From assembly GCA_049322955.1 (NCBI GenBank), contig JBMOPU010000012.1, forward strand, positions 886,186 to 950,185: a stretch of 64,000 nucleotides of DNA. Direction: 5' to 3'. The notes under the pieces were generated by a model. It worked only from the letters and a program-made list of their open reading frames with translations, did no database searches and had not been told where the DNA came from. The translations under genes were made by a program, and so were the position numbers. Positions 6,361-46,217 of the stretch are shown piece after piece (within the stretch, counting starts at the first letter, position 1; each line of letters starts with the position of its first letter). This DNA is from Patescibacteria group bacterium. GTDB lineage: Bacteria > Patescibacteriota > Microgenomatia > UBA10105 > UBA927.

Positions 6361-6371
6361 AATTATTTAAG

Positions 6372-7424: not shown

Positions 7425-7433
7425 ACACTCCGC

Positions 7434-10823: not shown

Positions 10824-10827
10824 ATGG

Positions 10828-12441: not shown

Positions 12442-12464
12442 AGTATGTATCAGATTTACTGAGA

Positions 12465-21051: not shown

Positions 21052-21052
21052 C

Positions 21053-22986: not shown

Positions 22987-22993
22987 CATACGA

Positions 22994-27260: not shown

Positions 27261-28024
27261 GATGCGAGAGATAATAAATACGCCTTAGGAAAATGGAGCG
27301 CTGAAAATAAGGCAAACAAAAACCCCCGCCATCCGTCGACAAATCCCTTATGACGGATAAACAGCAGGAAAAACGTACCAAGCGGTTTTCCCACAAGATA
27401 TGTTACCGCGGCGGCAATGCTTCGATTGCCTTTTTTTTCGGCAAGTTCGCGGGCGGTAAGGGCAATATACGCGGCGGATTTCTTCCAGTACTGCTTTGCC
27501 GAAACATAGGAATAGTGGTCAAGAGGATTGGAGAGTTTGCCTACCGAACCGGCTATCGTTATCTGCTCATGGACGCTTTTTTGGGGGAAACTTCCCTTCT
27601 CCCGCCTGAAGAGTCGGACGACATAATCCGGGTATTGCCCACCTTTGCGGAGCCAATCGCCCAAAAAATAATTTTTTCTCGGGATTGCGTATCCGTCAAG
27701 TGAATTGGCATTTGAGCATACCGCCCGGATTTCGGAGGCCAATTCATTACTCACCACCTCATCGGCATCGAGCTGGAGAATCCACACGCCGTGGGCATGA
27801 TCCAGTGCTTTTTGTTTATTGATGTGGAACATCGGCGGGTTGGTAGTTTCAATTACCGTAGCCCCGTGCTTTTTGGCAATGATCGCCGTGGTATCGGTAG
27901 ATGCGCCGTCCACCACCACGATTTCGTCGGCAAGCGTCCGCACCGACGCAAGACAGCGTTCGATATTTGCGGCTTCGTTATGGGTAGCCAGCGCTACGGT
28001 TATGAGGACATTCTTTTTCGCCAT
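27257..28024 (-). CDS. glycosyltransferase family 2
   Basis: ITVALATHNEAANIERCL ... EIVVVDGASTDTT ... LQLDADE. Confidence 0.8.
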   Translation of the reverse strand: MAKKNVLITVALATHNEAANIERCLASVRTLADEIVVVDGASTDTTAIIAKKHGATVIETTNPPMFHINKQKALDHAHGVWILQLDADEVVSNELASEIRAVCSNANSLDGYAIPRKNYFLGDWLRKGGQYPDYVVRLFRREKGSFPQKSVHEQITIAGSVGKLSNPLDHYSYVSAKQYWKKSAAYIALTARELAEKKGNRSIAAAVTYLVGKPLGTFFLLFIRHKGFVDGWRGFLFALFSALHFPKAYLLSLAS

Positions 28025-29715
28025 ATGAGTGCTATTGTACCAAGTGCCGCAAGAATAACGAGCGATGCCGCACTGATACCGTTGGCTACGGAGCGTAATT
28101 TTGTGTCCGAAAATACGAACCGGATATCATAGCTACCAGGATCCAAATCAAAGGTCATGAGTCCGCGATACGACGGATCCTGAAACTGCAAGGCATCGGC
28201 TTCAAGCGGGGCACCGTTTATCGTCACCCGCCATCCCGGAAAATAGAGCGTGTTCTCGACAAACCGCACGGGACCGGTCGTCTCCACATGATAGGAACGT
28301 ACGGTGCTGGTCCGTATTCCCTGGGTGATTCTGCCCTCACTGGGGATAAGGTACGCGGCGCTTTCGGGGCGGCGTTCCATAAAACGCACCGACCAAATAG
28401 GACTGCTTTCGCCGGTATCGGTGGTGCTGTTATAAATCCCCGTAAAAAACGACTCCGGATATTGTTTGTACTCCTTGGCTCGCCACATGGGAACGGTCGT
28501 AATAATCCCGACGATACAAAGGAATACGGCAATTTGTCTCCGCCGTTTGGGTGACGAAAGCACTACCGCAAGCGCTCCGATGACGGCAAGCAGAAACGTT
28601 GTGACCGACAAAAGCCTCCAGGGAAATTGGAATTTCTGAAGTATGGTAACCGTATTCCACAGCGGACTTGATAGTTGCGTCATGGCAAACAGCGTAAAGA
28701 ACAACAGCAGGATGCAGGCGATGAGAAGTTTTTGGTATTTCGAATTTTTCTCCAGTAAAAAGAATCCCACGATGAGCGCAAGCCACGGACCGGCTCCCAA
28801 CCATTTGGACAATTCATTTCCTCCGCCGTAGCTCCAGGGAGAATAAATAAACGCCGTCCACGGCACAAACCGTCCGGCAAATTCACCGGCAGTCACGATG
28901 TCACGAAGCGTATATTTTCCCTCAAAAAAACCCGGCACCCAATAAAATGCGGACAGCAAAAATCCCCATCCCACGGCAATCGCCGCGATCACCAAAAAAC
29001 GCGCACGAAGTTTTGTCTCGTGAACGGTCAAATAAATCGCATACCATGCAAGGATCGGCAAAAACATGATACTTAACGCGTTATGGGCAAGGATAAGACA
29101 TGCCACTCCCACCGCGATGACGGTACCGGGAGCAATCCCCCACCCCTTCCGTATATTTGAAAGCAAAAGCAAGCCGTATGCGATAATCGGCGGAAAGATA
29201 AATGCCATGTGTTCGCCGATTGCTCCCCGAACATACAGATCGATAAACCGATACGGTGCAAATCCGTATAGCACTGCGGCCGTCACCCCGGCCGCCACTC
29301 CCCATGAAGCACTTGCCCACAGATACATTGCCAAAATGCTGGCAATGAAACCGCTGGCAAAAACCAGCTTCGTGCTGTCAACGAATGAAAATCCCAAAAA
29401 GTGAAAGAGCGAGCCGACATACGAAGGAAGCGGATACAAAAACATAAGGATCGGATGTCCGTATCCCCAGTTCAGATTCGCCGCCCATCTCGGCACGATG
29501 TTCCCTTCCGAAAGAGACCGGTAAAAGTTTGCAATTCGCGCGATATGATCCTGCCCGTCATGCGTCACGGGAAAACCCGGATTGAGCAAATCAGAAAGCG
29601 GCAATAGCGCGACACAGAACAGACCGATCCATACTAATACGGAACGTATGTTTCGTTTCACTTTGTTTCCTCCATTATTCGTTTCTCGATAATAAACCCG
29701 CTCGGTAATTTCCAC
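28000..29715 (-). CDS. YfhO-related polytopic membrane protein (HD...RW family, member 2)
   Basis: FPVTHDGQDHIARI...VPRWAANLNWGYGHPILMFLYPLPSY, FAPYRFIDLYVRGAIGE, C-terminal YFPGWRVTINGAPL...LDPGSYDIRF then a TM anchor. Confidence 0.6.
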   Translation of the reverse strand: MEITERVYYRETNNGGNKVKRNIRSVLVWIGLFCVALLPLSDLLNPGFPVTHDGQDHIARIANFYRSLSEGNIVPRWAANLNWGYGHPILMFLYPLPSYVGSLFHFLGFSFVDSTKLVFASGFIASILAMYLWASASWGVAAGVTAAVLYGFAPYRFIDLYVRGAIGEHMAFIFPPIIAYGLLLLSNIRKGWGIAPGTVIAVGVACLILAHNALSIMFLPILAWYAIYLTVHETKLRARFLVIAAIAVGWGFLLSAFYWVPGFFEGKYTLRDIVTAGEFAGRFVPWTAFIYSPWSYGGGNELSKWLGAGPWLALIVGFFLLEKNSKYQKLLIACILLLFFTLFAMTQLSSPLWNTVTILQKFQFPWRLLSVTTFLLAVIGALAVVLSSPKRRRQIAVFLCIVGIITTVPMWRAKEYKQYPESFFTGIYNSTTDTGESSPIWSVRFMERRPESAAYLIPSEGRITQGIRTSTVRSYHVETTGPVRFVENTLYFPGWRVTINGAPLEADALQFQDPSYRGLMTFDLDPGSYDIRFVFSDTKLRSVANGISAASLVILAALGTIALIWRKRMSS

Positions 29716-31183
29716 GAAGCCGTAACGTTTCCTTTTTTAATCACGGTTTCCAACCATCCATTATAACTCCACGGTTTTTCGGGATCAGGTTCAATCAGCA
29801 GATATACGGTGTTTTCAAGCGATGTTCCCGGTACATACCCGTATCGCTTTGAAGCGTGCCAACCGAGAAGATAGTCATACGCGTAGGTATATACGGGGGG
29901 CGTAAAAACAGCAAGATTAAAACGCTCACCCCGTGCGTCAGTGTAAATGAAATCGATCGCATCAATTTTTCCGCGTATTTTCGCCGTCCCGCCATAGTCG
30001 CGATAATCATAAGTAATTATTTTCGGAAATCGGTAAAACACATTGACAAGAAGTACGCCGAGGAGTCCCAGTGCCACCCATCTGCCTACTTTTCCATGCA
30101 TGGCTTTCATACCCGTGTATGCACCGAGGATGGGATAAACAAAATACAGCAGAGAAAAATAATGGGAATATACCGGTCCCCGATACGGATAATAAATGAT
30201 AAGATGTGCAAAAATGAGAAGCAGTATCCCCGTCATATACTGTTGCTGTTCTTTCTTTTTTTCGTGATACACGTACCAGATAGCGGCCGAAAAAAGTATA
30301 AACGGAAACAGATAGGTCATTCCGGGTATACCCAATGAGAACGACTCTCGTACCGTTGCAAGCAGTGCATTGCCGTCTCCTATCACCCGGCAATCGGCTG
30401 AAACGGTTTTGCCTGTGCACCCTGGGTAACCCGCGTGCCGTACGACAGCACCCCGCGAACAATATTCCATCCGTGTCGGGCCTCAAAGAGTATCATGGGC
30501 AGAAACCCCATGAGAGCACCGGCCGCAATGACTATCCAACGACGAATATCCCGTACACGAAGCACGACTGCAAAATAGACACCAACCGCGACGAGTGCGG
30601 GTACCGCCATCGGAATTTCAAAATGATAGAGACTTGCCGCCAAAAATGCCGTGAGAAAAACGGAAACTAAGGTTTTTTTTCGCGACATCCATAGCGCATA
30701 CAAAAATGGCATAACGAGAACTCCCGAGTAATTCGGAGCCCATATCATTCTCGCTTGCGCGGTCAGGGGAAGCGATACGGCTGACAACAGCAATACAAGC
30801 CGCGCAGTAGCATTTCCGAATATCCTGTTTGATAATCTGGTCAACGCAAAAATCACTGCCAAACTCACCGCGCATAAAAACACGATCGACCAGTAAGGGT
30901 TGCCGGCACCAATGAATAACAAACCCGCGAGTATATATCGATATCCCGGTCCGTGGAAAATACCCGGCAGTCCCGCAAAACCCGCACCCGCTTCAGCACC
31001 GATAAGCGTAAATTTATGCGCAAACGCAATCGAGCTTGCCGCCATGGTATCGAGCCCCTGATCAAAACCGAATACGTAGTTGCCGTTTAGTGTCTCCACC
31101 GTACGAAGCACAATTCCCAACGCAATCGCCACCAAACCGGCCGCGGTTAAAACGTACGTACCCAACGCAGATATCCGTTTCAT
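29658..31183 (-). pseudogene. ArnT/PMT_2-like GT-C paralog interrupted by a single-nucleotide frameshift (~30386..30420)
   Basis: ORFs 30383..31183 and 29658..30470 are in different frames. Frame A ends ...GVLSYGTRVTQGAQ and frame B continues ...ALLATVRESFSLGIPGM. This matches the paralog 37382..38893 (...GVLGEGTRVVMSKRAMVWQALDYSFRVWGKMLPWM) collinearly only if the frames are joined. Confidence 0.5.
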
Positions 31184-31187
31184 AGTA

Positions 31188-32816
31188 TTATTTCGTCACG
31201 GCGATAATTGCCGTTTCTCCGTTTTTATTGGCAAACCGTTTCAGTACCTTGGCTCCTGCGGGAACCCCGTTGCTATCGTAGAGATACAGCGTATCCTCAC
31301 TCATATCTTCCGTTCGTTCGGGAAGAAATCCGAACGCGTATGAGCCTATGGTATGGGAGGCTGCAAATCCGCCGGACGTGGTACCCCCCTGTGCCAGATA
31401 TTTTTTGGGATCGTAGTTACTGTAAAAAAGGAAAAACATATACGACTGATACAGCGCTCCCTGGTTACTCATTTCAATCCGGGCATAGGTTCCCTCCTGT
31501 TGTTTTACATACGAAACGGCTTCCGATATCGCGTATTGAAACGAATCGGATTGTTCACGCGGAAAGCGTATGAAGTACCCGTTCCAAAACACGGCTACTC
31601 CGCTTATCGCTACAATCGCAATAATCACTCCGAGCAATCGTTTTCCGTCGGATTTGAGCATGCCTATGACATACCATACCCCCAAAGCGGCAACAATTTG
31701 GGGAATAGGAATCGCCGAATAAAAACGCATCGCATGCGGTGCTCCGGTCGTCAGTGCCGCCGGTATGGGAGCCGCGACAAGGTATGCCGCAAGGAGGAGC
31801 GTTACACGTGACGGAAATTTCTTCTTGGCAAGAAAAACAACGCCGGCGACCAAAAACGGGAGTTCCCACAAATACAGAAGCCCCATACCCGGCACCTTGT
31901 GGGCTTCCCGCTCACTCCCTGTAAATAGCCATCGCGGGGAAAAATGCGAAAGATAATTCCCGGCAAAAATCGCAAGACTCGTCGTATATTTGCTATATAC
32001 CACCCGACCGAAGAGATCATGCCGCGTTACCGCATCGGCGTATCGTGACGTTGCCTCCGTCATTACGGGACTATCGGGCGCAAACGCGCTTGTTCCCTTA
32101 AACCGCGACATACCTTCCGGCGAAAGACTGACAATCATTGCCGGTATCGCAATAACACTCCCCGCCATGACCGCGATAATCACCTGCTTTTTTTCACGCA
32201 GTAGTTCTTTCCAAAAAAGTAGGAGGGTGACAGCGGCAATGCAGGGTACGATCAGCTTCTGGCTTTGATACCCGTGCAGTGAAAGTGCGAAGAATACCGC
32301 CGTATATATCCAATCCCGTCCACGCTTTGCAATAACTGCGCGAAGCAGGAAGTATAATCCGAGCACCGCGAGCGTAAGTCCCAAATTTGCCTCATGGCCG
32401 AGTCGTGACAGATAAATATGCCACGGAGAAATCGCGAGAATTGCGAGCGCCAGTTCTCCGATCGCACGAGTACCCAAATATTTGTTCCCGACAAGAACGC
32501 CTATTTGATACGTCGCCCATAGCGTAATAAGAGAGAGAACAAACGCGGGCAATCGCACGGCAACTGCGGTAAGGCCGAAAACCGCGACAAACGGGATGGT
32601 GAGATAGACATACAGCGCCGGCCGAAAGTCATCGTAGGCACGTAACAGCAACGGAAATGAGTTGCCGTATTCGTCTTTGCCGGTCACCATGATCGAATAG
32701 GCGTTATAGCCTATGGAAACCTCATCCAAAGACGGCGCGGGAGGAACGCTCCCGAGGTGCACAAGTCGCAACAATGCCGCGACGACAAAAAGTGTTACCA
32801 GGATATATCGCTTCAT
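31188..32816 (-). CDS. PMT_2/ArnT-like GT-C glycosyltransferase (GT39/GT83-like)
   Basis: LRLVHLGSVPPAPSLDEVSIGYNAYSIMVTGKDEYGNSFP...RLPAFV signature. About 11 TM helices plus a C-terminal soluble domain. 542 aa. Confidence 0.8.
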   Translation of the reverse strand: MKRYILVTLFVVAALLRLVHLGSVPPAPSLDEVSIGYNAYSIMVTGKDEYGNSFPLLLRAYDDFRPALYVYLTIPFVAVFGLTAVAVRLPAFVLSLITLWATYQIGVLVGNKYLGTRAIGELALAILAISPWHIYLSRLGHEANLGLTLAVLGLYFLLRAVIAKRGRDWIYTAVFFALSLHGYQSQKLIVPCIAAVTLLLFWKELLREKKQVIIAVMAGSVIAIPAMIVSLSPEGMSRFKGTSAFAPDSPVMTEATSRYADAVTRHDLFGRVVYSKYTTSLAIFAGNYLSHFSPRWLFTGSEREAHKVPGMGLLYLWELPFLVAGVVFLAKKKFPSRVTLLLAAYLVAAPIPAALTTGAPHAMRFYSAIPIPQIVAALGVWYVIGMLKSDGKRLLGVIIAIVAISGVAVFWNGYFIRFPREQSDSFQYAISEAVSYVKQQEGTYARIEMSNQGALYQSYMFFLFYSNYDPKKYLAQGGTTSGGFAASHTIGSYAFGFLPERTEDMSEDTLYLYDSNGVPAGAKVLKRFANKNGETAIIAVTK

Positions 32817-32821
32817 GCGTA

Positions 32822-34450
32822 TTATTCCGAAATTCGTATGGCATCCGGGCCGTCAAGGTATGAAATAACCATCGGGCTTCCCGGTATTTCTTTCGGTGAT
32901 CCGATATAGAGTACCGAGCCGTCATGCTTTTCGTTTGCCCAATTCGGGATAGGACGGAATTCGTACTTATCAAAACGGTTACGCACTTCCTTAAACCCGC
33001 CCGAGGCGGTTCCTCCTGCGGCAAGGTATGCGGCGGGATCATATTTCGTATAAAAAAGGAAAAACATATGCGGTTGTTCGAGCTTTGTGGAGACCACTAT
33101 CTTGTCATATTTATGCTTATTCGCCTCAGCATACTCTACCGCCTGCTTATAACCGTACTGCCAAAACGGGGAATACTCGAGATTCATATGCACATAGTAC
33201 ATGTGGAAGTAGAAAAGCAAGTTCGCCGCTATTGCCGTGACGGCAACCACCCCTCCCGCTCCCATGACGAACCGCGATACCCCGCGGGTTTTCTTGAATA
33301 GCGATATCCCGAAAACGACACTCCCATAGAAACCTACCGCAATGCACAGTTGCAGGATCGGAAGTACCACAAGCGTCCGTATGGCATGCGGCGTTTCCGA
33401 CGTCGGGGATGCGGCAAGCGGGGCAAGCAAGATCCAGCTAACTACCAGTGTCGCGAGCTTCCCGCCTTTTTTCCAAATCGTATACAACCCGATGAACAAA
33501 AACGGCAATTCAAAAAAATAGAGTAATCCGTTATCGGGCGCGTGATGCCGGTCGTTATCTCCGGTCAAAAAGAGCCATCGCAGGGAAAAGTGACTGATAT
33601 AGCCGTCCAACAGCGTCCGTGCGTACACGATACGCCTGTTTTCCATAATCACTCCGATCCGGTCGCCGGCGCGTATATCGTCTTCCAGTTTTTTGACCGA
33701 CCGCATGAGAAGTCCGGTCGTATCGGAAAGCGTACTCGTGCCTTTCAGTCGGGTTACCGATGTTTTATCAAGCAGTACCGGAATAAGCGGCAGGACGGTA
33801 AGAAGCCCCACCATGATGCTTATGGCAATTTTCTTTTTGTCGGAAAACAGTTCTTTTCGCCAGAGAACGCTTACGACCAAAAGCAGAAGCGGCACAAAAA
33901 TACGTTCACTATGGTACGCATACAGTGAAATCCCGAACAAAAATGCCGCAAATACCATCCACGGAAGTGAGGTCAGTCCGCGAAAAAACGCCACCAACCC
34001 CCAGATATTTAACGTGACGCCGGTGTTTGCCTCAAACGCAATCCGCGAAAACTGCAGATGCCAGGGCGAAATTGCAAGGAAAAAAGAAGTAAGCAAGGCG
34101 AGCGTATCATCCTTTTTTTTCACAAGCAGGCTAACCAAATAATAGGTACCGATAACCGCCAAAATGCCCATGACCGCCGAAGGCAGTCTCGTCGCCCATG
34201 TGGTAAGCCCGAACGCGGCGACCGAAGGAATGGCGAGATACGTATAAAGCGGCGGCTTATAATCGTCAAATGACCGAAGCGTCCGCGGGAGGAATATCCC
34301 GTATTCATCTTTACCGGTTTTCAGTATCGAATAGGCGTTATACCCCAACGCCGCCTCATCCCAATCCGGGGAAACGGGCACCACACCAAGCTGCCAAAGA
34401 CGCAGGAACGCCGCAAGAATAATAATGCCGATAAAAAACAGTTTTTTCAT
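32822..34450 (-). CDS. PMT_2/ArnT-like GT-C glycosyltransferase
   Basis: PVSPDWDEAALGYNAYSILKTGKDEYGIFLP...RLPSAV. 542 aa. Tandem paralog. Confidence 0.8.
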   Translation of the reverse strand: MKKLFFIGIIILAAFLRLWQLGVVPVSPDWDEAALGYNAYSILKTGKDEYGIFLPRTLRSFDDYKPPLYTYLAIPSVAAFGLTTWATRLPSAVMGILAVIGTYYLVSLLVKKKDDTLALLTSFFLAISPWHLQFSRIAFEANTGVTLNIWGLVAFFRGLTSLPWMVFAAFLFGISLYAYHSERIFVPLLLLVVSVLWRKELFSDKKKIAISIMVGLLTVLPLIPVLLDKTSVTRLKGTSTLSDTTGLLMRSVKKLEDDIRAGDRIGVIMENRRIVYARTLLDGYISHFSLRWLFLTGDNDRHHAPDNGLLYFFELPFLFIGLYTIWKKGGKLATLVVSWILLAPLAASPTSETPHAIRTLVVLPILQLCIAVGFYGSVVFGISLFKKTRGVSRFVMGAGGVVAVTAIAANLLFYFHMYYVHMNLEYSPFWQYGYKQAVEYAEANKHKYDKIVVSTKLEQPHMFFLFYTKYDPAAYLAAGGTASGGFKEVRNRFDKYEFRPIPNWANEKHDGSVLYIGSPKEIPGSPMVISYLDGPDAIRISE

Positions 34451-34459
34451 ACTCAGTAG

Positions 34460-36094
34460 TTATTCAAACGCGACAAGCACCGGCGCTCCGTTGAGTAACC
34501 GTACGGTCTCAATCACCCGAGCCGTTGCCGGCACATCTTTGGGCGGCATGATATACAGCACCTTGCCCGAAAAATCCCCCGAGCCCTCCCGTACAAACCG
34601 GTATTTGCCGAACCCATAGACATTGTAAAATCCCGCAGCGTCAAACGATGCATCTTTTGTTGCGGTAAATTCCGAAAGCGGCGTTTGCTTGTAAAACAAC
34701 GCATAAATATACGGCCTGCCGATGCTTTCGGTTAACACCACCGTATCAAAATCTTTTTCATACTTTTCCGCAATGGCGATGGCGGACTTATAGCCGTATT
34801 GCCACTCACCGGAAAACTCTTTGGGATAATGGGCCATAAGGGTATGCCAGAAATAGGCAAAATTTGAAAGAAACAGGAGTACAACAAAAAGACTTACGCC
34901 CGTTCTCCACTTCGTTTTTATTGCCCGGATCGCCGCGACCATGCCGTAGGCGGTAGCCAGCATATAGACCGGAAGACCGTTCTCTATCCGAAGCGCATGC
35001 GGTGTTTCGCGGGCAACCGCGGTGGGGATGATGGCGCTTATGAGCCACCAGAGGAGGAATCCCCCGACAACCGGGTAATCGCGAAACAGTGCAAGCCATC
35101 CGAACATAAGAAACGGTGCGGAAACCAGAAGCAACTGCCCGACGTCCTGCACGGAGAATTTGGGATTCCCATCGCCTTTGATAAATAAGAACCGCGGTTC
35201 CAAATTATCAAAAAAATGGATGAAGTATTCCCTTGCATACCCCACCCTCCGGTTATGGAGAATCGACGAAAGCGGCGAAAAATTATCCGCTTCCCTTCTC
35301 GTGTTGGAGGTTAATACGGTGCGAAGATCGGTAAATATACTTACCTCTTCAAACCGTAGTCTCGCCTGTTTTGACACGAGATGCGGCGCGATGGGGATAA
35401 GGAGGATAAGCGCCGCAAGGATGCCGACGACAGCCTGCTTCCTTGCGCGAAACAGATCGTTTTTAACGATAAGCAAAAGTCCCCCTGCGATGAGCGGCGC
35501 CGCATAACGGGTGCTGTTAAAGGTGTAAATACCCAATATAAACGGTATCCACGCAACGTAAAAATACTTCGGTTCATTTCGACCCCGAAGCACCGCCCAT
35601 ATGCCGGAAATCAGGAAAAATACGGCAATGTTCGCCTCAAATCCCGCCCGCGACAACATGATGTGCCACGGGGTAACCGCCATCAACGATGCGGCAACCA
35701 GACCGATAGCATCCCGCTCCTTGCTGTCGCGAAAAAGCTCCCGGGCTAACACAAAGAGCATGCCTACGGTTGCCACGCCGAAAAGCGCCGAAGGGAGCCG
35801 CACCGCAAGTTCGGTAAGACCGAACAGCGCGACAAACGGTACCGTAAGATAAATGGGCAGCGGCGGCTTGTAGTCACCGAATGCCGCAAATGCATCAAGC
35901 GGCATGAATGTCCCGTGCTCATCCCTGCCGGTCGTGAGAATGGTGTACGCGTTATACCCTATCGATGCCTCATCCCAGGAAATTGCAGGGGGATTGGTGC
36001 TGACGCGAAACGTACGAAAAAAGAGTGCTACAAGAAGCACACCCGCAAGCAACGGTATCACGTACTTATGCTGTTTCATGAGTGATTTTTTCAT
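34460..36094 (-). CDS. PMT_2/ArnT-like GT-C glycosyltransferase
   Basis: PPAISWDEASIGYNAYTILTTGRDEHGTFMP...RLPSAL. 544 aa. Tandem paralog. Confidence 0.8.
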   Translation of the reverse strand: MKKSLMKQHKYVIPLLAGVLLVALFFRTFRVSTNPPAISWDEASIGYNAYTILTTGRDEHGTFMPLDAFAAFGDYKPPLPIYLTVPFVALFGLTELAVRLPSALFGVATVGMLFVLARELFRDSKERDAIGLVAASLMAVTPWHIMLSRAGFEANIAVFFLISGIWAVLRGRNEPKYFYVAWIPFILGIYTFNSTRYAAPLIAGGLLLIVKNDLFRARKQAVVGILAALILLIPIAPHLVSKQARLRFEEVSIFTDLRTVLTSNTRREADNFSPLSSILHNRRVGYAREYFIHFFDNLEPRFLFIKGDGNPKFSVQDVGQLLLVSAPFLMFGWLALFRDYPVVGGFLLWWLISAIIPTAVARETPHALRIENGLPVYMLATAYGMVAAIRAIKTKWRTGVSLFVVLLFLSNFAYFWHTLMAHYPKEFSGEWQYGYKSAIAIAEKYEKDFDTVVLTESIGRPYIYALFYKQTPLSEFTATKDASFDAAGFYNVYGFGKYRFVREGSGDFSGKVLYIMPPKDVPATARVIETVRLLNGAPVLVAFE

Positions 36095-37346: not shown

Positions 37347-37381
37347 TGTACTAAATCAACTTATGCTTGACCATTGAGGGA

Positions 37382-38893: not shown

Positions 38894-38936
38894 TCTGCTC
38901 GTATTCTTGTTATAATGCCAATAGCCTCGTACCTAT
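38894..38936 (+). promoter_or_regulatory. divergent intergenic region with extended -10 (TGnTATAAT) for the plus-strand block
   Basis: TG at 38908-38909, TATAAT at 38911-38916, about 20 nt upstream of ATG 38937. This is the only strand-switch spacer in the window. Confidence 0.35.
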
Positions 38937-40574
38937 ATGCATTCATTTAAGCACTATATCCTTGTCATTGCAATTTCGCTCCTCCCGTTTATCACCGTAT
39001 TTTCAAGCGATCTGGCCCCGCATACCCATGACAGCCCCGTACATTTTGCCCGTATTGCGGCGTACTATAAAGCGCTTTCGGAAGGGCAAATCCTCCCCCG
39101 ATGGGCGGGAGAATTAAATTATGGCTATGGCATGCCGCTTTTTAATTTCATCTACCATGTCCCTTACCTGGTTGCCGTCATTCCTGTGGCATTGGGGAGC
39201 GGCACCGTGTTTGCCTTTAAATTTTCGCTTGCCGTAAGTTTTCTTCTCTCGGGTGTGTTCATGTACCTGTTCGCCGCGACATTTTTCAAAGATACGAGGC
39301 GCGCCGCATTGGTCACGGCCCTGTATCAGTTTGCACCGTTTCACCTTATCGATCTTGTGGTACGCGGCGACATGGCCGAAGGGTATGCACTCGCGTTTCT
39401 TCCCCTGGTACTTTACTCACTGCAACGGGGATTTGAAGGAAAAACGGTCTCTGCCTCGATGCTACTTACCGCAGTCGCCACGTTGCTTCTTATCACATCG
39501 CATAATGCGATAAGTCTGGTGTTTTTCGGCGTCTGTGCCTTGTTTGCCGTCGTGTTTGCCCCTTCCCACGCCAAACGACTCCAAGCGGGTCTCGGTCTAT
39601 CGTTGGGGCTTGCGCTTGCGGCATTTTATTGGCTCCCCGCACTGGTGGAACGACGCTATACGTATGGAGATTTATTCATGAAGGACATGTATCTTTCACA
39701 TTTTGCACCCCTTTGGCATTTCTTTCTTCCGAATCTCACAAACGCCCCTTCCCTTCAAACGGGAGGGATCGCCGTTTCGTTAGGATTGGTTCCGATGCTT
39801 GGGTTCTTTGCCGCGATGATTCTGCTTGTTGGAAATAAAATATCCGCCAAACACGACAGACTCGCGCTGTGGTTTGGGCTGTTCCTCAGCGTTGCGGCGC
39901 TTTTTGTCATGCAACCGATCAGTAAGGTGTTCTGGGAAAATATTCCGATTCTTCGCATGTTTCAGTTTCCGTGGCGACTGCTAAACGTCACGACATTCTC
40001 TCTTGCCATGATCGGCGGCATCGTTTTTGTTTCCAAAAAAACATCCAGAAAAATGACACTGTTTCTTATCGCGGTCACCGTGCTTTCAAGCCTCGTGTAT
40101 TTCCGACCGCCGCTCGGGATGGATCGGGTTGACGAAGCATATTATTGGGATTATCCGTTAAATACGACGTATTTCGGCGAAACTGACATCATCTGGTCGG
40201 CAGGTCCCAAAGATAGTTATCCCGCAAACCGTTTCGAGGTTGTGGGGGGCGAAGGTACCGTTTCGGATCCCGTAAAACGGGGAACGAAACATACTTTCAC
40301 CGTCAACGCCGCAACCGACGTGCAGGTGGTCGATAAAACGCAATACTTCCCCGGATGGCGAGTATATACGGGAACGACAAAAGTGCCCGTCGAATTTCAG
40401 GATCAGAACTGGCGGGGGCTTATTACCTTTCGCCTTCCTCCCGGTACGCATCACGTAACGGTTGCCTGGGAAGATTCTCCCATCAGGAGAATCGCGAAAA
40501 TTATTACGTTCATTTCCGCTGTCGTGTGCACGGTGTTGTTTGCCCTACGAAAAAAAATCATTGCATATGGCTAG
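38937..40574 (+). CDS. YfhO-related polytopic membrane protein (HD...RW family, member 3)
   Basis: APHTHDSPVHFARI...LPRWAGELNYGYGMPLFNFIYHVPY, FAPFHLIDLVVRGDMAEG, C-terminal YFPGWRVYTG...LPPGTHHVTVAW then a TM anchor. Confidence 0.6.
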   Translation: MHSFKHYILVIAISLLPFITVFSSDLAPHTHDSPVHFARIAAYYKALSEGQILPRWAGELNYGYGMPLFNFIYHVPYLVAVIPVALGSGTVFAFKFSLAVSFLLSGVFMYLFAATFFKDTRRAALVTALYQFAPFHLIDLVVRGDMAEGYALAFLPLVLYSLQRGFEGKTVSASMLLTAVATLLLITSHNAISLVFFGVCALFAVVFAPSHAKRLQAGLGLSLGLALAAFYWLPALVERRYTYGDLFMKDMYLSHFAPLWHFFLPNLTNAPSLQTGGIAVSLGLVPMLGFFAAMILLVGNKISAKHDRLALWFGLFLSVAALFVMQPISKVFWENIPILRMFQFPWRLLNVTTFSLAMIGGIVFVSKKTSRKMTLFLIAVTVLSSLVYFRPPLGMDRVDEAYYWDYPLNTTYFGETDIIWSAGPKDSYPANRFEVVGGEGTVSDPVKRGTKHTFTVNAATDVQVVDKTQYFPGWRVYTGTTKVPVEFQDQNWRGLITFRLPPGTHHVTVAWEDSPIRRIAKIITFISAVVCTVLFALRKKIIAYG

Positions 40575-42921
40575 AAAAGAATGGTTGTTTATCATTGTCA
40601 CGGTTACGTCTCTTCTCATCCTCTTTTTTCATCAGACATTTTTTCGAGGTCTGGTGCCGTTTCCGGGGGACATTCTAGTCAGTGACTTTCAACCGTGGCG
40701 GTCGACTTCCTACCTGGGCTACGGCGCGGGAGGAATACCGAATAAAGCACAGTATCCCGATACCATACGACAAATGTATCCGTGGAAAACCGTAGCGGTG
40801 GAAGCCCTTAAAAGCGGAAAACTCCCTCTGTGGAATCCCTATAATTTCTCGGGCTCCCCGCTTCTTGCGAACTTTCAGAGTGCGGCACTGTATCCTTTGG
40901 GGATTTTTTACCTTTTCCTGCCGCAAATAACCGCCTGGACGATCCTTATTATCATGCAACCGCTCCTCGCGTTTCTTTTTACCTATTTTTTTGCACGAAA
41001 ACTGGGTATGGGAAAGCTCGCAAGTACCCTTTCGGGCATATCATACGGTTTTTCGGGGTTTATGAGTGTCTGGCTTGAGTACAACACCATAAGTCATGTC
41101 GTGTTGTGGCTACCGCTCATTTTATTGAGCATTGAAAATCTTGCCAAAAAACCGCATCGGGCGTGGCTTGCCGTTTTCGTGGGAAGCCATGTCATGGCAC
41201 TGCTTGCCGGACACCCTCAGGTGTATGCGTATCTTGCCGCCTATTCGCTTCTTTACGGATTGTTCCGTATGACCCGCGCGATGTGGCCGTATCTTTTCGG
41301 GTCAACGCTTTTGGGTATCGGCCTTTCGGGCATACAAATTATTCCGGGTATTGAACTGATACGTCAGGCGGCCCGAAGCCCGCATGATCCGGGAAACCTT
41401 TTTGCAAAGATACTGATTCATCCCGGGCAACTCATGGCACTTCCTTTCCCCAATATCTTCGGCAATCCTGCAACGCGTACCTACTGGCCAACCGATACGT
41501 TCATCGGCAAAGTAACGACCATAGGCCTTGTCCCCCTCTTCTTTTTCCTATCGACACTCCGACGAAAAGAGAGCGTCAGCAAGTGGTTTGTGTTGGCAAG
41601 CATCGCGGTCGTGATTTTGATTACGAGTAATCCGATGACTCAGATTTTGTACCGGGTACCCATCCCGCTTTTTACCTCAAGCAGTCCGACCCTTATGTCA
41701 TTCCTTCTTGCCTTTTCGCTTGCGATGGCGTGCGGACTCGGACTTGATTATTGGATCACGGATAAGCATTCCGTAAAAAAACTTGTTCGCCGAAGCATCG
41801 AAATGGCGGGCGTGTTTATCATCCTTTTTATCGCGACAAAACTTCCCTTCATCCCGGAATTTTCCCTACATGCGGGACAATCGGTAAAGGCGCTCCTCTA
41901 CGGGGCGGGAATTACCGCGGTTACCCTTGCACTGTTTTGGGTCGCCATCCGGTTTCCCCGATGGCGGATGCACGCCGTACTTGTGATGGTTATCGTCCAT
42001 GCGCTTGATATGTTTGTGTTCTTTTACCGGTTTAATCCGTTTGTTCCGCAGGCACTGGTATTTCCGGAGCACAAAATTCTTACTCGCCTTCAAACGCATG
42101 CCCCCGATCGGTACTGGGGATACGGCACGGCGGGAATACCGGCAAATTTTGCCTCACAATACGGGATATTTTCGCCCGAAGGATATGACCCGTTATACCC
42201 CAAACGATACGGAGAATTTTTATATGCCTATCGGACGGGAAGACTTATGGATATTTTCGACAATACCACACGCTCCGACGCCGCAATCAGTTCGCGATTC
42301 GGCGACGGCGGACTGACCGACAGGGTTAAACAAAAACTGATGAGTGCGTTAAGCGTCCGGTATATCCTGGACCGCACCGAAAACGCCAGCAGTGAGCAGA
42401 CCTTTCCGCCCGATGTTATCAAGAAAACAGACTCGATCGATGACTGGATACTGTATGAAAACACCCAAGCTCTGCCTCGAGCGTATGTTTCGGGGAAAAT
42501 AACCACGATAAAAAATACGGAGGATTTTGCCGATACGTTTTTTGCCCCTTCCCACAACCCGATAACTACCGCGCTGATCAGTGATACTGTCGGGGAAACC
42601 CGCGGTATCGAAGCATCAGGGTCGGCAACTATTCTTTCCTACGAACCGGAGCAAGTGGTAATACGCACCGAAAGCACCGTATCGGGCATGCTCGTCCTCA
42701 CCGACACGTTCTTTACCGGTTGGCAGGCGTCAGTGGATACATCACCGGCAGAAATACTTCCGGTCAACTGGACCCTGCGCGGCGTTTCGGTGCCGGAAGG
42801 CACGCATACGGTCACCATGCGTTATGCGCCGCGTAGCGTAACAATCGGTATTCTCTTGAGTATGGGAAGCCTGTTTGCGACAATAGTACTGCTTATTTTC
42901 GCAAAACCAAAACGATCATGA
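40567..42921 (+). CDS. YfhO-family GT-C membrane glycosyltransferase
   Basis: FPGDILVSDFQPW...QMYPWKTVAVEALKSGKLPLWNPYNFSGSPLLANFQSAALYPL, the YfhO N-terminal signature. C-terminal FFTGWQASVDTS...VPEGTHTVTMRYAP. Start taken at ATG 40567 (MARKEWLF), an 8-nt overlap with the upstream gene. Confidence 0.75.
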   Translation: MARKEWLFIIVTVTSLLILFFHQTFFRGLVPFPGDILVSDFQPWRSTSYLGYGAGGIPNKAQYPDTIRQMYPWKTVAVEALKSGKLPLWNPYNFSGSPLLANFQSAALYPLGIFYLFLPQITAWTILIIMQPLLAFLFTYFFARKLGMGKLASTLSGISYGFSGFMSVWLEYNTISHVVLWLPLILLSIENLAKKPHRAWLAVFVGSHVMALLAGHPQVYAYLAAYSLLYGLFRMTRAMWPYLFGSTLLGIGLSGIQIIPGIELIRQAARSPHDPGNLFAKILIHPGQLMALPFPNIFGNPATRTYWPTDTFIGKVTTIGLVPLFFFLSTLRRKESVSKWFVLASIAVVILITSNPMTQILYRVPIPLFTSSSPTLMSFLLAFSLAMACGLGLDYWITDKHSVKKLVRRSIEMAGVFIILFIATKLPFIPEFSLHAGQSVKALLYGAGITAVTLALFWVAIRFPRWRMHAVLVMVIVHALDMFVFFYRFNPFVPQALVFPEHKILTRLQTHAPDRYWGYGTAGIPANFASQYGIFSPEGYDPLYPKRYGEFLYAYRTGRLMDIFDNTTRSDAAISSRFGDGGLTDRVKQKLMSALSVRYILDRTENASSEQTFPPDVIKKTDSIDDWILYENTQALPRAYVSGKITTIKNTEDFADTFFAPSHNPITTALISDTVGETRGIEASGSATILSYEPEQVVIRTESTVSGMLVLTDTFFTGWQASVDTSPAEILPVNWTLRGVSVPEGTHTVTMRYAPRSVTIGILLSMGSLFATIVLLIFAKPKRS

Positions 42922-44552
42922 AACCGACCGTCAGATACATGCTCATTCTCATTGTCGCCATTGCCCTTTTACTCCGCCTGTGGGATATAACAAATGTTCC
43001 GCCGGGTGTAAATCGCGATGAGGCAAGCATCGGCATAACCGCGTATTCGCTCATGACGACGGGGAAAGACGAATACGGCAGAACGCTTCCGATTTCCTTT
43101 GAATCATTCGGCGACTGGAAATTACCTCTGTATATTTACACCACTATCCCCTTTATCACACTTTTCGGCCTGACGGAACTTGCCGTGCGCCTCCCTTCCG
43201 TACTCGCCGGAGTGGGATCGGTAGCCGCCGTATTTTTTCTTGCCCGCATGTTGTTTGCATCGGAACGTATCGCGCTTTTGGCCGCTTTCTCGCTGGCTAT
43301 TATGCCCTGGCATGTGCATATTTCCCGGGTAGAATCGGAAGCGATCGTTTCGGTATTTTTTACCCTCATAGGATCCGTCCAGTTCCTGCGCGGCATACGG
43401 ACTAAATCAGCTACATCGCTTATCGCATCGGCAATACTTTTCGGACTTACCTATTGGACCTACCACGGCACGCATGTTTCGACGACACTGTTACTTTTGG
43501 GAATGGCGGCAATTTTTTGGAAAGATATCGTCAAGGTTCCCCGATTCGGGATAGCGGTCCTCATCGGCGCCATCGTTACGTTCACTATTTTGGGTGCGAC
43601 GTTTCAGGCGGATCACACGAAAATAAGCGGCATATCGATATTCGGCGATCCGACGGTTATCCATAACGATATCGAGCTTCCGCGATTAGTGCACGATACC
43701 CCCGACTCACTTGCCGTGAAACTTTTGCATAATAAGTTCACCTATGCCGTCGTCCGCATCGCACATAATTATTTGGCCTCATACGGCCCTGAATTTCTCT
43801 TCATCAAAGGCGGCGGGAACCGCGCGCACAATATCGAAGGATACGGGAATCTGCATATCATCGAAGCGCCGTTATTGCTTCTGGGTGTTGCCGTGCTTAT
43901 AGGGCTCCTCCGGAAAAAAGAAGCGAAATTTATCCTCTGGTGGATTGCGGTCGGAGGCGTCGCCGCCTCAATCACCAAGGATGCCCCCCACTCAAACCGC
44001 ATGCTTGCCGTCGTTCCTTCTCTTGCCGTCACTGCCGCCCTGGGCGGCAACTTTCTTCTGGATCTGGTCCCGCGACCGGGGAAAAAACTGATGATGTCGG
44101 GAATTATTATCGGCTACCTTCTGTGTATGGCGATCTATCTTGATCTCTACTTCGTGCATTTTAAAAAGACGGAAGCGATGCATTGGGGATACGGCTACAA
44201 AAAACTTACCGCACTGCTTTTTGCGCCGGAGCATATGGGCAAACGGGTAATTATGACCAAACCGGAAACGTCACCGTACAGTTACATCTTGTTTTACAGC
44301 GCATACAGTCCCGCCGACTATCAGAAAACCGCAACCCGCTATCCGATCTCTTCGGATGGATTTACCGATGTTTCCGGTTTCGGAAGATTTTCTTTCCGGG
44401 CGATAGATTGGCAAAAAGATATCACGCAAAAAAATACGCTCCTTGTGGTTGCTCCCGACGAGTTCCCCCAGGGACTCGCCGGCAAGACAACGGCAACGAT
44501 TACGCTTCCCGACGGCTCGGTGCAATTTATTGTCCTGGATTTGGATAAGTAA
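42918..44552 (+). CDS. PMT_2/ArnT-like GT-C glycosyltransferase
   Basis: NVPPGVNRDEASIGITAYSLMTTGKDEYGRTLP...RLPSVL. 544 aa. ATGA overlap with yfhO-like gene. Confidence 0.8.
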   Translation: MKPTVRYMLILIVAIALLLRLWDITNVPPGVNRDEASIGITAYSLMTTGKDEYGRTLPISFESFGDWKLPLYIYTTIPFITLFGLTELAVRLPSVLAGVGSVAAVFFLARMLFASERIALLAAFSLAIMPWHVHISRVESEAIVSVFFTLIGSVQFLRGIRTKSATSLIASAILFGLTYWTYHGTHVSTTLLLLGMAAIFWKDIVKVPRFGIAVLIGAIVTFTILGATFQADHTKISGISIFGDPTVIHNDIELPRLVHDTPDSLAVKLLHNKFTYAVVRIAHNYLASYGPEFLFIKGGGNRAHNIEGYGNLHIIEAPLLLLGVAVLIGLLRKKEAKFILWWIAVGGVAASITKDAPHSNRMLAVVPSLAVTAALGGNFLLDLVPRPGKKLMMSGIIIGYLLCMAIYLDLYFVHFKKTEAMHWGYGYKKLTALLFAPEHMGKRVIMTKPETSPYSYILFYSAYSPADYQKTATRYPISSDGFTDVSGFGRFSFRAIDWQKDITQKNTLLVVAPDEFPQGLAGKTTATITLPDGSVQFIVLDLDK

Positions 44553-44553
44553 T

Positions 44554-46206
44554 ATGAAAAAATACGTCAAAGAGTGGTTCCTTCTTTTGCTGATCGTGGT
44601 TGTCGGGGCATATTTGCGGCTTGATCGCATAACCAGCATTCCCCCGTCGCTTTCCCATGACGAAACGGCGATTGCCTATAATGCGTATTCGATTCTTACG
44701 ACGGGTAAGGATGAATACGGTATCTCGTATCCGCTACTTTTTCGCTCGTTTGATGACTACAAACTTCCGGGTATGGTCTATGCGACAGTTCCCTGGGTCA
44801 AACTTTTCGGACTCACCGAACGGGCGGCAAGAACCCCCTCGGCGTTATTCGGTATTCTTTCCGTTATCGTCATGTACGGTATCGCCTTTGAATTAACAAA
44901 AAGCAGAAAGGCCGCGTTATTCCCCGCCCTCATGTTTGCCTTGTCTCCCTGGCATATCAATTTTTCGCGGCAGTTATTTGAAAGCAACGGCGCGGTATTT
45001 TGGTTTATGGCGGGAACCTACTTTTTACTCAAAAGCATAAAAAAGTATCCGATGATCATCGTTTCCGGAATATGCTATGTCGCCGCATTGTATTTCTACT
45101 ATTCAGTCCGACTGGTGATCCCGTTTATCGGTCTTTTGTATCTTGTGATGCATGGAAAAACCATGAAGACACACATAAAGACGACCGCGGTTGCCGTCAT
45201 CCTCAGTATTGCGTTATTTGCACCACTGGGGAGAGAGATGCTCTCTCCCGGGGGCATGGAGCGGATATCGATTGTCAGTGTGGTGAATGACCAACAGTAT
45301 CTGAAACGAAAAGAAGCGTATGTTGCCAAGATGGGCGTGTCGCCGACCGTATGGCAAAAAATCGTCTATAACCGGCGGGTCGCCCTGCTGGTTACCGTTT
45401 TGGAAAATTATTCGAAAAATATTTCTCCCCAAAACTTATTTATGACCGGAACCGGAACGTACGGTGCGCTCTATCCGTTTGAAGCCATTCTTTTTCCGTT
45501 AGGGCTTGTCGCGCTGTCGGGGTTTTCCCGATTCGGCGGCATGCTTGTCCTGGTGTGGCTGATCACCGCCTTTTTACCCGGAGCGTTCAGCGTCAATCAA
45601 CCCAATACGCTCCGCACGCTCGTCGCGGCGCCCGCTTTTTCGTTGCTATCGGGATTGGGTATCCTGTACGCGCTTCGTGCCGTACGGAAGAATTTCGCCC
45701 CCTGGGGAGTGACCGTCGCCGCGGGAGTACTTATGTTTCTCTTCATCTCCTCGTTTCCCAAGTTTCATTATGCTTACTTTGTCGATAACCCGACCAACAA
45801 CGCGCTTGCATTCGGTGACGGCTATAAACAGATGGTCGAGTACGTGATGCGAAACGGGAAAGACTATGATCGTATCTATATTTCCGGTTACCACTGGCGT
45901 CCGTATATATTTCTGTTGTATTGGGGCAAGGTGAATCCCGCAATCTATCAACGGTCCGGCACCCGTGAACAATTCGGGAAGTATCTGTTCAGCGGTGCAA
46001 GCTGGGACACCAACGGACTTAAATTCATGGATGCGTCGTTTTCGCTTTCCTCACTCCCCCGGGAGGGAAAGACGCTTTATATTCTTGCCTATTCCGAATA
46101 CCTGCTCCATCAAAAAGAGCTGACGGTCATAGGCGAGATACATGGAGTCCACACGCCCAAAGTATTTGTCGCGGCAACGCTCTCTCAGCCTCAGCCTGTA
46201 CGGTGA
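44554..46206 (+). CDS. PMT_2/ArnT-like GT-C glycosyltransferase
   Basis: PPSLSHDETAIAYNAYSILTTGKDEYGISYP...RTPSAL. Start at ATG 44554 (MKKYVKEW), 1 nt after the upstream stop. Confidence 0.8.
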   Translation: MKKYVKEWFLLLLIVVVGAYLRLDRITSIPPSLSHDETAIAYNAYSILTTGKDEYGISYPLLFRSFDDYKLPGMVYATVPWVKLFGLTERAARTPSALFGILSVIVMYGIAFELTKSRKAALFPALMFALSPWHINFSRQLFESNGAVFWFMAGTYFLLKSIKKYPMIIVSGICYVAALYFYYSVRLVIPFIGLLYLVMHGKTMKTHIKTTAVAVILSIALFAPLGREMLSPGGMERISIVSVVNDQQYLKRKEAYVAKMGVSPTVWQKIVYNRRVALLVTVLENYSKNISPQNLFMTGTGTYGALYPFEAILFPLGLVALSGFSRFGGMLVLVWLITAFLPGAFSVNQPNTLRTLVAAPAFSLLSGLGILYALRAVRKNFAPWGVTVAAGVLMFLFISSFPKFHYAYFVDNPTNNALAFGDGYKQMVEYVMRNGKDYDRIYISGYHWRPYIFLLYWGKVNPAIYQRSGTREQFGKYLFSGASWDTNGLKFMDASFSLSSLPREGKTLYILAYSEYLLHQKELTVIGEIHGVHTPKVFVAATLSQPQPVR

Positions 46207-46217
46207 CACACGGCGGA

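Follow-up and report, generated by a model that had tools for sequence, protein, structure and literature searches.

Why does the ~1 Mb genome of an uncultured member of the Patescibacteria keep several similar membrane enzymes side by side: are they the products of a recent local duplication, or different enzymes with different tasks? The stretch of DNA that we analysed (64 kb, hereafter the window) is an island of genes that build cell-surface sugars; the genes lie close together, 1-29 nt apart or overlapping by as much. Three of the enzymes are encoded on the minus strand: A (31188..32816, 542 aa), its sister group B (32822..34450, 542 aa; NCBI product name 'ArnT family glycosyltransferase'), and C (34460..36094, 544 aa), with intergenic gaps of 5 bp (A/B) and 9 bp (B/C). 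On the plus strand, the start of D (42918..44552, 544 aa) overlaps the stop of the YfhO gene K by 4 nt, and E (44554..46206, 550 aa from the ATG at 44554, with a C-terminal insertion) begins 1 bp after D. An ORF check bore out the coordinates of A-E in the initial annotation. Their similar lengths (542, 542, 544, 544, and 550 aa), which had been taken as a mark of the array, are real but only the norm of the family, whose members mostly have ~510-600 aa (best 150 of 6,173 cluster representatives). The five proteins are mutually full-length homologs (blastp E-values of 1e-55 to 5e-102, 27-36% identity), and the A-E family HMM gave 498-745 bits for A-E (539 for A) and 22 bits or less for all other genes of the window.

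Against the curated gathering cut-off of Pfam PMT_2 (PF13231; 26.1 bits), A, B, C, D, and E scored 43.1, 35.3, 49.4, 33.8, and 40.1 bits, respectively. In the case of Pfam PMT (PF02366; cut-off 22.7 bits), C, D, and E passed with 27-30 bits (C 28, D 30.1); in the Pfam scan neither A nor B matched this family, and a MIR-type loop domain was detected in none of A-E. The AF2 model of B (pLDDT 91.4, pTM 0.91) has a GT-C fold and matches solved GT-C enzymes at 10-14% identity, including ALG12, ALG9, AftA, AftB, AftD, PimE, EmbA, Pmt4, and Pmt1/2; ArnT, ALG12, and oligosaccharyltransferases equal or surpass the Pmts as fold matches. Because this structural identity is just 10-14%, the donor and acceptor are not readable from homology. 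The profile searches gave no non-GT family for A-E, and their assignment as PMT_2-type GT-C enzymes is supported by the PMT_2 scores (34-49 bits) and the fold. The PMT_2 half of the earlier label 'PMT_2/ArnT-like' stands. No curated equivalog matched A-E (best NCBIfam scores of 22-46 bits versus cut-offs of 126-800). The ArnT family proper was tried by profile comparison and rejected (family profile versus PDB ArnT, E 0.012, 17.6 bits, 160 residues).

The proteins have ~11-12 transmembrane helices, and the extracytoplasmic loop 1 opens with the catalytic Asp-Glu (residues 31-32 in A). All five proteins have this DE, preceded by an N-terminal hydrophobic segment; in the AF2 model of B it opens helix 30-45, after helix 2-18. 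The acidic catalytic residue expected where loop 1 begins is thus conserved in all of A-E. The reading of the loop-1 DE as a catalytic signature was sound, since it is a recognised hallmark of Pmt-type GT-C enzymes (PMC8698208). However, the motif DE...GYNAYSI...TGKDEYG, reported in all copies, occurs in its strict form in A and B only, and the relaxed pattern DE..[IL][GA]..AY[ST][IL]..TG[KR]DE[YH]G is present in A-E. The downstream RLP[SA] block was correctly described for A-D, but reads RTPS in E and is absent from F and G, two genes next to the array. Furthermore, A-E all share D31, E32, R88, H133, R138, and E142 (A numbering), and in 125 homologs (B numbering) conservation reaches at least 90% for D31, E32, and K65 and is complete for R88, R136, and E140. 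Judged by these residues, A-E are likely active enzymes.

F (37382..38893, minus strand, 503 aa; PMT_2, 44.5 bits) and G (29658..31183, minus strand; ORFs 30383-31183 and 29658-30470; 508 aa when intact) had been counted among the motif bearers, but both lack the DE and GYNAY/TGKDEYG and have an invariant F..GDQGR block instead. F scored just 22 bits with the A-E HMM. By hhalign, the F subfamily aligned with A-E at 97.9% probability over 321 columns, in the membrane core only; D35-Q36 of F aligned with D31-E32 of B, and DQ is found at the aligned position in both F and G. Neither fragment of G matched Pfam PMT_2. By these alignments, F and G are a distantly related subfamily apart from the motif-bearing A-E. 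In comparison with related loci (given here by L numbers), the frameshift noted earlier in G is genuine: the gene is intact (508 aa) in L013, from a strain 99.78% identical to the window over 5,029 nt, and near-identical strains carry the intact 508-aa form. At the frameshift site (30383..30392, minus strand), the window reads GCCGGG-TGATAGG and L013 GCCGAGTTGATAGG, that is, one substitution and the loss of 1 nt near 30386-30390. When the L005 gene, which is intact and encodes 519 aa, was used as tblastn query, the frame switched between 30392 and 30386. The frameshifted sequence was also found in Logan assembly L001, and G is absent from the L002, L007, and L009 loci.

The tandem duplication proposed for the array, if read as a recent local event, is not what we found. 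The paralogs are only 27-36% identical in protein sequence, and the search for gene conversion among them revealed no tract, the best nucleotide matches being 64-76% over 60-86 nt. In the tree, the copies group into five orthogroups across genomes, not by genome, and gene order is conserved across Gottesmanbacteria-like genomes. A recent tandem duplication or conversion array was ruled out by the low nucleotide identity and the tree by orthogroup. Related genomes have one-to-one positional orthologs with 45-100% identity overall: 45-74% for A (in L002, L005, L007, and L009), 57-88% for B (among the 120 matches listed), 53-100% for C, and 51-65% for D, with homologs of E at 42-99% (among the matches listed). 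All related loci contain A, B, C, and D, always in the same order, and E and G vary in presence; D is followed by E and L (see below) in L011 and L012, and no E gene adjoining D was found in L009. Between orthologs, dN/dS was 0.09-0.15 (A and B measured), the C-terminal domain included, and each of the 20 long metagenome loci surveyed had two to six family members within ~10 kb. On these comparisons, the duplication of A-E is ancient, and such an array is usual for this bacterial group rather than an exception. A sharply delimited tract of ~2 kb at 34386..36377, covering gene C and the edges of B and the neighbouring gene I, is 99.6% identical to L002 (8 mismatches over 1,992 nt) against a background of 65-85%, and dS for C is 0.02 versus ~1 for the neighbours; this suggests an allele exchange.

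Each of A-E ends in an alpha/beta domain of ~110 residues that lies beyond the membrane, for which structure comparison gave no significant relative. The C-terminal domains had been said to differ among the paralogs. They are indeed not near-identical, but the domain is homologous in all five and not more diverged than the rest (26% identity versus 31%; TM8-11, 27%; middle loop, 23%). Between orthologs, purifying selection on the domain is strong (omega 0.14 for A, 0.04 for B). Comparison of the B and E orthogroups gave 44 positions that are conserved inside each group and differ from one group to the other; they are densest in the C-terminal domain (15 of its 122 positions, versus 5-8% elsewhere). 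This modest excess fits an old divergence of specificity in sequence terms, although it is no proof of the diversified acceptor or donor specificity that had been proposed.

The island contains 16 GT-C-type genes, which fall into three paralog families; here we take PTPS_related and YfhO proteins to be GT-C enzymes on the basis of their Pfam clan and the YfhO literature. The PTPS_related family has five members with 25-30% identity: H (28000..29715, minus strand, a membrane protein of this type; blastp H-J 32%, E 2.5e-74), J (38937..40574, plus strand, 545 aa; PF10131, 33.9 bits), 24046-25815, 60088-61770, and 61734-63326, of which J and 60088-61770 match the Pfam family. J, separated by 43 bp from where F starts, leads the plus-strand block J-K-D-E. 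K (40567..42921, plus strand, 784 aa), 49776-52016, and 53069-55471 are YfhO proteins (66.9, 73.6, and 106.5 bits, respectively) with ~30% mutual identity. Between C and F lies I (36066..37346, minus strand, 426 aa), a GT87-like polytopic membrane protein scoring just under the cut-offs of both GT87 (23.6 bits) and PMT_2 (19.9 bits), whose orthologs bear GT87 or MptA_B_family marks. L (46218..47936, minus strand, 572 aa, ~12 hydrophobic segments) is a polytopic membrane protein without a Pfam or NCBIfam match, and is kept beside E as 573-576-aa genes in L011 and L012. The best candidate polyprenyl-phosphate-hexose synthase is a 236-aa GT2 (22300..23010, minus strand; NCBIfam best matches AglJ at 116.6 bits, Dol-P-hexose transferase, ArnC, and PpgS); 59367-60149 and 20260-21216 are weaker polyprenyl-P-sugar-synthase-like candidates, and all three are under the family equivalog cut-offs. 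Other genes of the window encode a Wzx-like flippase, methyltransferases, sugar epimerases, and GT4s, and its first 16 kb has low GC and further glycan genes.

We think it probable, from sequence comparison, that A-E are ancient, non-redundant PMT_2-type paralogs of one Patescibacteria-rich subfamily, putative polyprenyl-P-sugar transferases that act on different glycan positions or acceptors. Cytoplasmic GT2 enzymes of the same island would load sugars onto polyprenyl phosphate, the lipid-linked sugars would be flipped across the membrane, and each paralog would then transfer a sugar at the outer face to a separate position or acceptor of an envelope glycan or glycoprotein, alongside F/G, the GT87-like protein, the five PTPS_related, and the three YfhO proteins. 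The loop-1 Asp would serve as the base, and conserved Lys/Arg residues would hold the donor phosphate. The polyprenyl-phosphate donor is suggested by the GT-C fold class and the three GT2 genes; that the enzymes act on the extracytoplasmic side and differ in specificity is our inference. Against this explanation, none of the candidate donor synthases reaches its family cut-off, and A-E match no curated equivalog. Also, the varying presence of E and G among relatives suits accessory decoration better than an obligatory assembly line. In our literature search, no publications on Patescibacteria members of the family were found.

The loop-1 hallmark (PMC8698208), the passing of the PF02366 cut-off by C, D, and E, and the presence of Pmt4 and Pmt1/2 among the fold matches would also suit protein O-glycosyltransferases in the strict Pmt sense, which would modify Ser/Thr of different secreted or surface proteins (pili, S-layer, adhesins) with polyprenyl-phosphate-mannose. 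This is unlikely, however: the bacterial Pmt equivalog NF058602 matches C only, at 24.1 bits versus 800, A and B have no PF02366 match, no MIR-type loop domain was detected, ArnT, ALG12, and oligosaccharyltransferases fit the fold as well or better, and the genomic context (Wzx, GT4, YfhO) is of the polysaccharide type. It is extremely improbable that A-E are true ArnT-type modifiers that decorate a membrane lipid with a cationic sugar and so confer resistance to antimicrobial peptides. There is no ArnT equivalog among NCBIfam matches at E <= 0.001, the identity to ArnT is 13%, and Ara4N biosynthesis genes were not recognised among the window genes scanned, which gave weak, sub-threshold ArnC-like GT2 matches and no ArnA/B/D-type domains. 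Moreover, one lipid modification hardly explains five conserved copies, and Patescibacteria are not known to have lipid A.

The co-occurrence of A-D in every related locus in fixed order could reflect stoichiometric assembly rather than five reactions, the paralogs being subunits of hetero-oligomers as in the yeast Pmt1-Pmt2 heterodimer. The 1-9 nt gaps suggest co-translation, and PMTs are described as obligate dimers (PMC7759382, PMC12705809). However, with the full catalytic motif in all five none looks non-catalytic, and E is missing beside D in L009; we regard this possibility as quite unlikely, and it is compatible with the preferred one. Very unlikely is an array of interchangeable GT-C decorations for surface variation or phage evasion, with gain, loss, inactivation, and exchange among strains as in serotype-converting Gtr clusters. 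Such a toolkit would account for G being present, absent, or frameshifted among close relatives, for the variable E, for the exchange suggested by the 2-kb C tract, and for the low-GC first 16 kb with its glycan genes, but A-D are conserved one-to-one across genomes with just 45-70% ortholog identity, dN/dS is 0.09-0.15 (A and B), and there are neither repeats or phase-variation tracts nor gene conversion between paralogs.

Returning to the non-redundant transferases, we tentatively suggest, with more doubt than confidence, that the A-E family, whose C-terminal domain lacks a structural relative, would count in CAZy terms as a new family of glycosyltransferases, mostly confined to Patescibacteria, and that with F/G, the GT87-like protein, and the PTPS_related and YfhO proteins it forms an extracytoplasmic line of 16 or more enzymes for a complex, lineage-specific envelope glycan. 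If true, glycan complexity comparable to that of mycobacterial arabinomannan would be encoded in a ~1 Mb genome, and the envelope glycan could be central to the attachment of these episymbionts to hosts.

Among known systems, ArnT (undecaprenyl-phosphate-L-Ara4N:lipid A transferase; PDB 5EZM/5F15; GT83) shares with A-E a K-P-P block, at which the profile alignment starts; A-E differ from it in sequence (13% identity, E-value 0.012, no equivalog match), in the C-terminal domain without a significant structural relative, in having five conserved paralogs versus one gene, and in that no lipid A/Ara4N context was recognised among the window genes scanned. Compared with Pmt (GT39; yeast Pmt1/2/4 and actinobacterial Pmt), A-E have no MIR domain, a shorter membrane core followed by a different C-terminal domain, and an NCBIfam Pmt score of 24 bits versus a cut-off of 800. 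In the three-component logic of YfhO/GtrB systems (teichoic acids of Bacillus and Listeria), a GT2 makes the lipid-linked sugar, a flippase moves it, and an extracytoplasmic GT-C enzyme transfers it. The island likewise holds three YfhO genes and small GT2 enzymes, although A-E are not YfhO proteins and genes for the synthesis of teichoic acids were not recognised in the window. In the GT-C batteries of mycobacterial arabinomannan (Emb/Aft/MptA-B/PimE) and of the ER-lumenal N-glycan precursor (ALG3/9/12/6/8/10), enzymes conserved one-to-one use polyprenyl- or dolichyl-phosphate sugars and make one linkage each. A-E resemble these batteries in their many paralogs, and differ in that the genes are packed in tandem in one island of a ~1 Mb genome.

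In the open reading frame listing, the five PMT_2-type GT-C genes A to E lie where the initial annotation had placed them. A (31188-32816, 542 aa), B (32822-34450, 542 aa) and C (34460-36094, 544 aa) are on the minus strand with intergenic gaps of 5 and 9 bp, and D (42918-44552, 544 aa) and E (44554-46206, 550 aa counted from the ATG) are on the plus strand, 1 bp apart. All-against-all blastp showed that they are full-length homologs (27-36% identity, E = 1e-55 to 5e-102), and a family HMM constructed from 125 family members gave 498-745 bits for these proteins and at most 22 bits for every other protein of the window. B is identical to MFZ5535485.1 ([quoted passage not shown]), encoded on the 990,597-bp contig, and its named homologs at approximately 59-60% identity are from Candidatus Gottesmanbacteria. 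The motif previously ascribed to all of the seven listed genes is retained in A to E as a relaxed pattern (DE..[IL][GA]..AY[ST][IL]..TG[KR]DE[YH]G); however, the strict pattern is matched by A and B only, and neither this motif nor RLP[SA] occurs in F (37382-38893) and G (29658-31183). A to D contain RLP[SA], and E has RTPS instead. The grouping of the seven genes as one family holds for A to E, but F and G belong to a different subfamily.

The genes A to E form a paralog cluster that is ancient and typical of the lineage, and their subfamily is uncharacterized. Nucleotide similarity between the paralogs was at most 64-76% over 60-86 nt, confined to the conserved N-terminal motif region; such short matches rule out gene conversion or recent duplication, and a check for conversion tracts among the paralogs detected none. 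Every one of the genes has a positional ortholog in related genomes, with ortholog identity of 45-100% and cross-paralog matches of only 27-37%. The gene order D-K-J-F-I-C-B-A-(G)-H-GT2 is conserved, and loci that contain E preserve the order D-E-L-methyltransferase-GT2-YfhO-GT4-YfhO (H and J, PTPS_related-type proteins; I, GT87-like protein; K, YfhO family; L, polytopic membrane protein). A neighbor-joining tree resolved five orthogroups, those of A and B being sisters, and the arrays of L003 (a Collierbacteria contig) and L004 paired with each other, not with individual genes of the window. Comparison with the related contig L002, at dS of approximately 1, gave dN/dS values of 0.15 (A) and 0.09 (B). 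The calculation per domain, proposed with the initial annotation, was made for these two genes and revealed purifying selection in every domain, including the C-terminal domain (omega 0.14 for A and 0.04 for B). The five orthogroups, the positional orthologs and the low nucleotide similarity contradict a recent diversifying duplication.

Among the five paralogs, mean identity was 49% in TM1 plus loop 1, 33% in TM2-7, 23% in the middle loop, 27% in TM8-11 and 26% in the C-terminal domain, compared with 31% for the whole protein. The C-terminal domains do differ in sequence, as the initial annotation had it; however, these figures show that the domain is homologous in all five proteins and that its divergence is unexceptional. 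The possibility that these are different domains was ruled out by the full-length alignment and by conserved blocks such as WQYGYK and P(H/Y)xFFLFY. When 61 B-type and 61 E-type sequences were compared, 85 conserved positions were in common, and 44 were conserved within the groups but different between them. The latter had their highest density in the C-terminal domain (15 of 122 positions, 12%; 5-8% elsewhere), a pattern that would be weakly consistent with an old specialization of an acceptor-facing domain.

F and G share an invariant F..GDQGR block. F passes the Pfam PMT_2 model (44.5 bits), and the two fragments of G match nothing. The family HMM, the motif patterns and a profile comparison ruled out both as members of the motif family. 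In the profile comparison, F and G were aligned with A to E across 321 membrane-core columns (97.9% probability, E = 4e-13), and D35-Q36 of F were paired with D31-E32 of B. The profile, the DQ alignment and the absence of the motifs show that F and G constitute a GT-C subfamily of their own, distantly related to A to E, in which DQ replaces DE; they are not divergent copies of the array genes. The frameshift reported in G was confirmed by the existence of intact homologs: an intact 519-aa homolog in L005 aligns to two frames of the window, with the switch between 30392 and 30386. Furthermore, five intact proteins of 508 aa, all from other assemblies, fall in the 90%-identity cluster to which the upstream fragment belongs. 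One of these is encoded in the near-identical strain L013 (99.78% DNA identity to the window across 5,029 nt), where the site reads GCCGAGTTGATAGG; in the window it reads GCCGGG-TGATAGG. The window sequence at this site recurs with 100% identity in the Logan assembly L001, which possibly derives from the same reads and hence is not independent confirmation. G is an accessory gene, intact in L005 and missing in L002, L007 and L009, and in this genome it represents either a very recent inactivation or a sequence error. For the adjacent gene H (28000-29715), the GTG start listed at 29715 lies within the end of G, with an overlap of 58 nt, and implies a protein of 571 aa; orthologs of H have 541-552 aa. 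The true start of H may be further downstream, near the stop codon of G, which would permit translational coupling.

A tract at 34386-36377, comprising C and the edges of B and I, is 99.6% identical to L002 (8 mismatches in 1,992 nt), and another at 21339-25720 is approximately 98% identical. The remaining aligned region has 65-85% identity, and the borders of the tracts are sharp; dS is 0.02 for C and approximately 1 for the neighboring genes. These tracts suggest recent gene-sized homologous exchange between diverged populations. L002 is a co-assembly ("binchicken", labelled Gammaproteobacteria), and a chimeric contig could also explain the near-identical tract; however, with its 8 mismatches the tract is not strictly identical, and we regard chimerism as less likely than exchange. 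L002 and L004, both GTDB-representative MAG contigs, are titled "uncultured Gammaproteobacteria bacterium" despite their Patescibacteria-type locus, probably a taxonomic mislabel in public records. Positions 1-16000 of the window have a GC content of 0.35-0.41, compared with approximately 0.50 elsewhere in it, and carry further glycan genes (GT2, methyltransferase, GT4 and epimerase), a weak PMT_2-like ORF (10828-12441, 537 aa) and large ORFs with no Pfam match (7434-9668, 744 aa; 4345-6360, 671 aa). This segment appears to be an extension of the island that was acquired horizontally or varies between strains.

The entire window is a glycan-assembly island. The products of nearly all genes scanned are glycosyltransferases, sugar-modifying enzymes, flippases or polytopic membrane proteins. 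With this 64-kb stretch, envelope-glycan genes take at least 6% of the contig, in a genome of approximately 1 Mb. There are approximately ten GT2, five GT4/GT1-type, four methyltransferase and two sugar epimerase/dehydratase genes, a Wzx-like flippase gene (57929-59380), and 16 membrane enzymes of GT-C type, which form three old paralog families. The YfhO paralogs (K, 40567-42921; 49776-52016; 53069-55471) have approximately 30% mutual identity, and in relatives a GT4 gene lies between the equivalents of the last two, with the order conserved. The PTPS_related-type proteins (H; J, 38937-40574; 24046-25815; 60088-61770; 61734-63326), with 25-32% mutual identity, are a second five-member polytopic family, parallel to A to E and scattered across the island. 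L (46218-47936; 572 aa, approximately 12 hydrophobic segments) is conserved and had no match in Pfam and NCBIfam. It has a DE pair (PDEFD) soon after the first hydrophobic segment, and its near-C-terminal region has a weak, non-significant likeness to the C-terminal domain of A to E (hhalign E = 0.023); L may be another unrecognized GT-C. As members of the A to E family, L, H and I were not significant (single-sequence hhalign probabilities of 2%, 0.6% and 27%, respectively). Three GT2 genes resemble polyprenyl-/dolichyl-phosphate-sugar synthases (AglJ, Dol-P-hexose transferase, ArnC and PpgS), all below the equivalog cut-offs, the best candidate being 22300-23010. No tRNA was found in a scan of the window, promoter-like sites were not in excess (26, compared with 24.5 in shuffled sequences), and terminator-like matches were enriched but scattered within genes, and hence uninformative. 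Divergent F and J are separated by 43 bp (38894-38936), and the convergent ends of E and L by 11 bp (46207-46217); consensus scans of these gaps gave no convincing promoter or terminator.

The assignment of A to E to the GT-C/PMT_2 superfamily was correct: all five exceed the Pfam PMT_2 cut-off, C, D and E also pass Pfam PMT, and the fold is GT-C, with no single closest characterized family. Fold comparison gave 23.7 for ALG12, 23.0 for ArnT, 22.8 for AglB, 21.5 for STT3B and 20.2 for Pmt4, at 10-14% identity, and Foldseek returned the same set; no solved structure exceeds approximately 14% identity to the family. In the predicted model, DE is at the start of the helix after the first membrane helix. 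The loop-1 DE motif is a catalytic hallmark of Pmt enzymes, and mutations of D77/E78 in yeast Pmt1 and of D55/K85/K203 in ArnT impair function (PMC8698208). Among 125 homologs, D31, E32 and K65 are conserved in at least 90%, and R88, R136 and E140 are invariant; with such conservation, all five paralogs look catalytically competent.

The best reading is that A to E are five non-redundant extracytoplasmic GT-C transferases, with the donor class and site of action suggested by the fold class. The GT2 enzymes of the island would make polyprenyl-phosphate sugars, and each of A to E, within a battery of at least 16 enzymes, would use them to contribute its own sugar or linkage to a glycan or glycoprotein of the envelope. 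Every paralog probably forms a distinct linkage, because each is individually conserved. Three rivals are partly compatible with this model: protein O-mannosylation in the strict sense, hetero-oligomeric complexes of the Pmt1-Pmt2 kind, and a variable surface-decoration toolkit. In the NCBIfam search no curated cut-off was reached, the best scores being 22-46 bits for Agl23 (cut-off 126) and 24 for Pmt (cut-off 800). A further rival is true ArnT-type lipid modification. ArnT was the sole match in a profile search of PDB sequences (E = 0.012, 160 residues), in an alignment that begins at a K-P-P block common to both, but no ArnT model was among the NCBIfam matches. The family names "ArnT family" and "GT39" are automatic transfers only, and the ArnT label is probably misleading.

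Patescibacteria (CPR) are episymbiotic bacteria with minimal genomes, yet in this uncultured member a full 64-kb stretch is given to envelope-glycan genes. With their probably distinct linkages, A to E are concrete targets for defining the surface glycan of these organisms, and the cluster is a good entry point into CPR envelope glycobiology. Our literature search for this family in Patescibacteria found nothing; an apparent ArnT match in PMC8172020 proved to be the cited author Arntzen. At E <= 1e-30, the family comprises 6,173 representatives of clusters formed at 50% identity, and the best 150 of these are mostly approximately 510-600 aa in length. A metagenome scan yielded 80 loci, 20 of them with at least 20 kb of sequence, and all 20 had two to six family members (mode, four) within approximately 10 kb of the match. 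The same-length tandem array pointed out in the initial annotation was therefore observed, but both features are normal for the family in this lineage. The array is a standard feature both of the lineage and of an already known superfamily of enzymes, and it represents neither a new mechanism nor a new kind of system.
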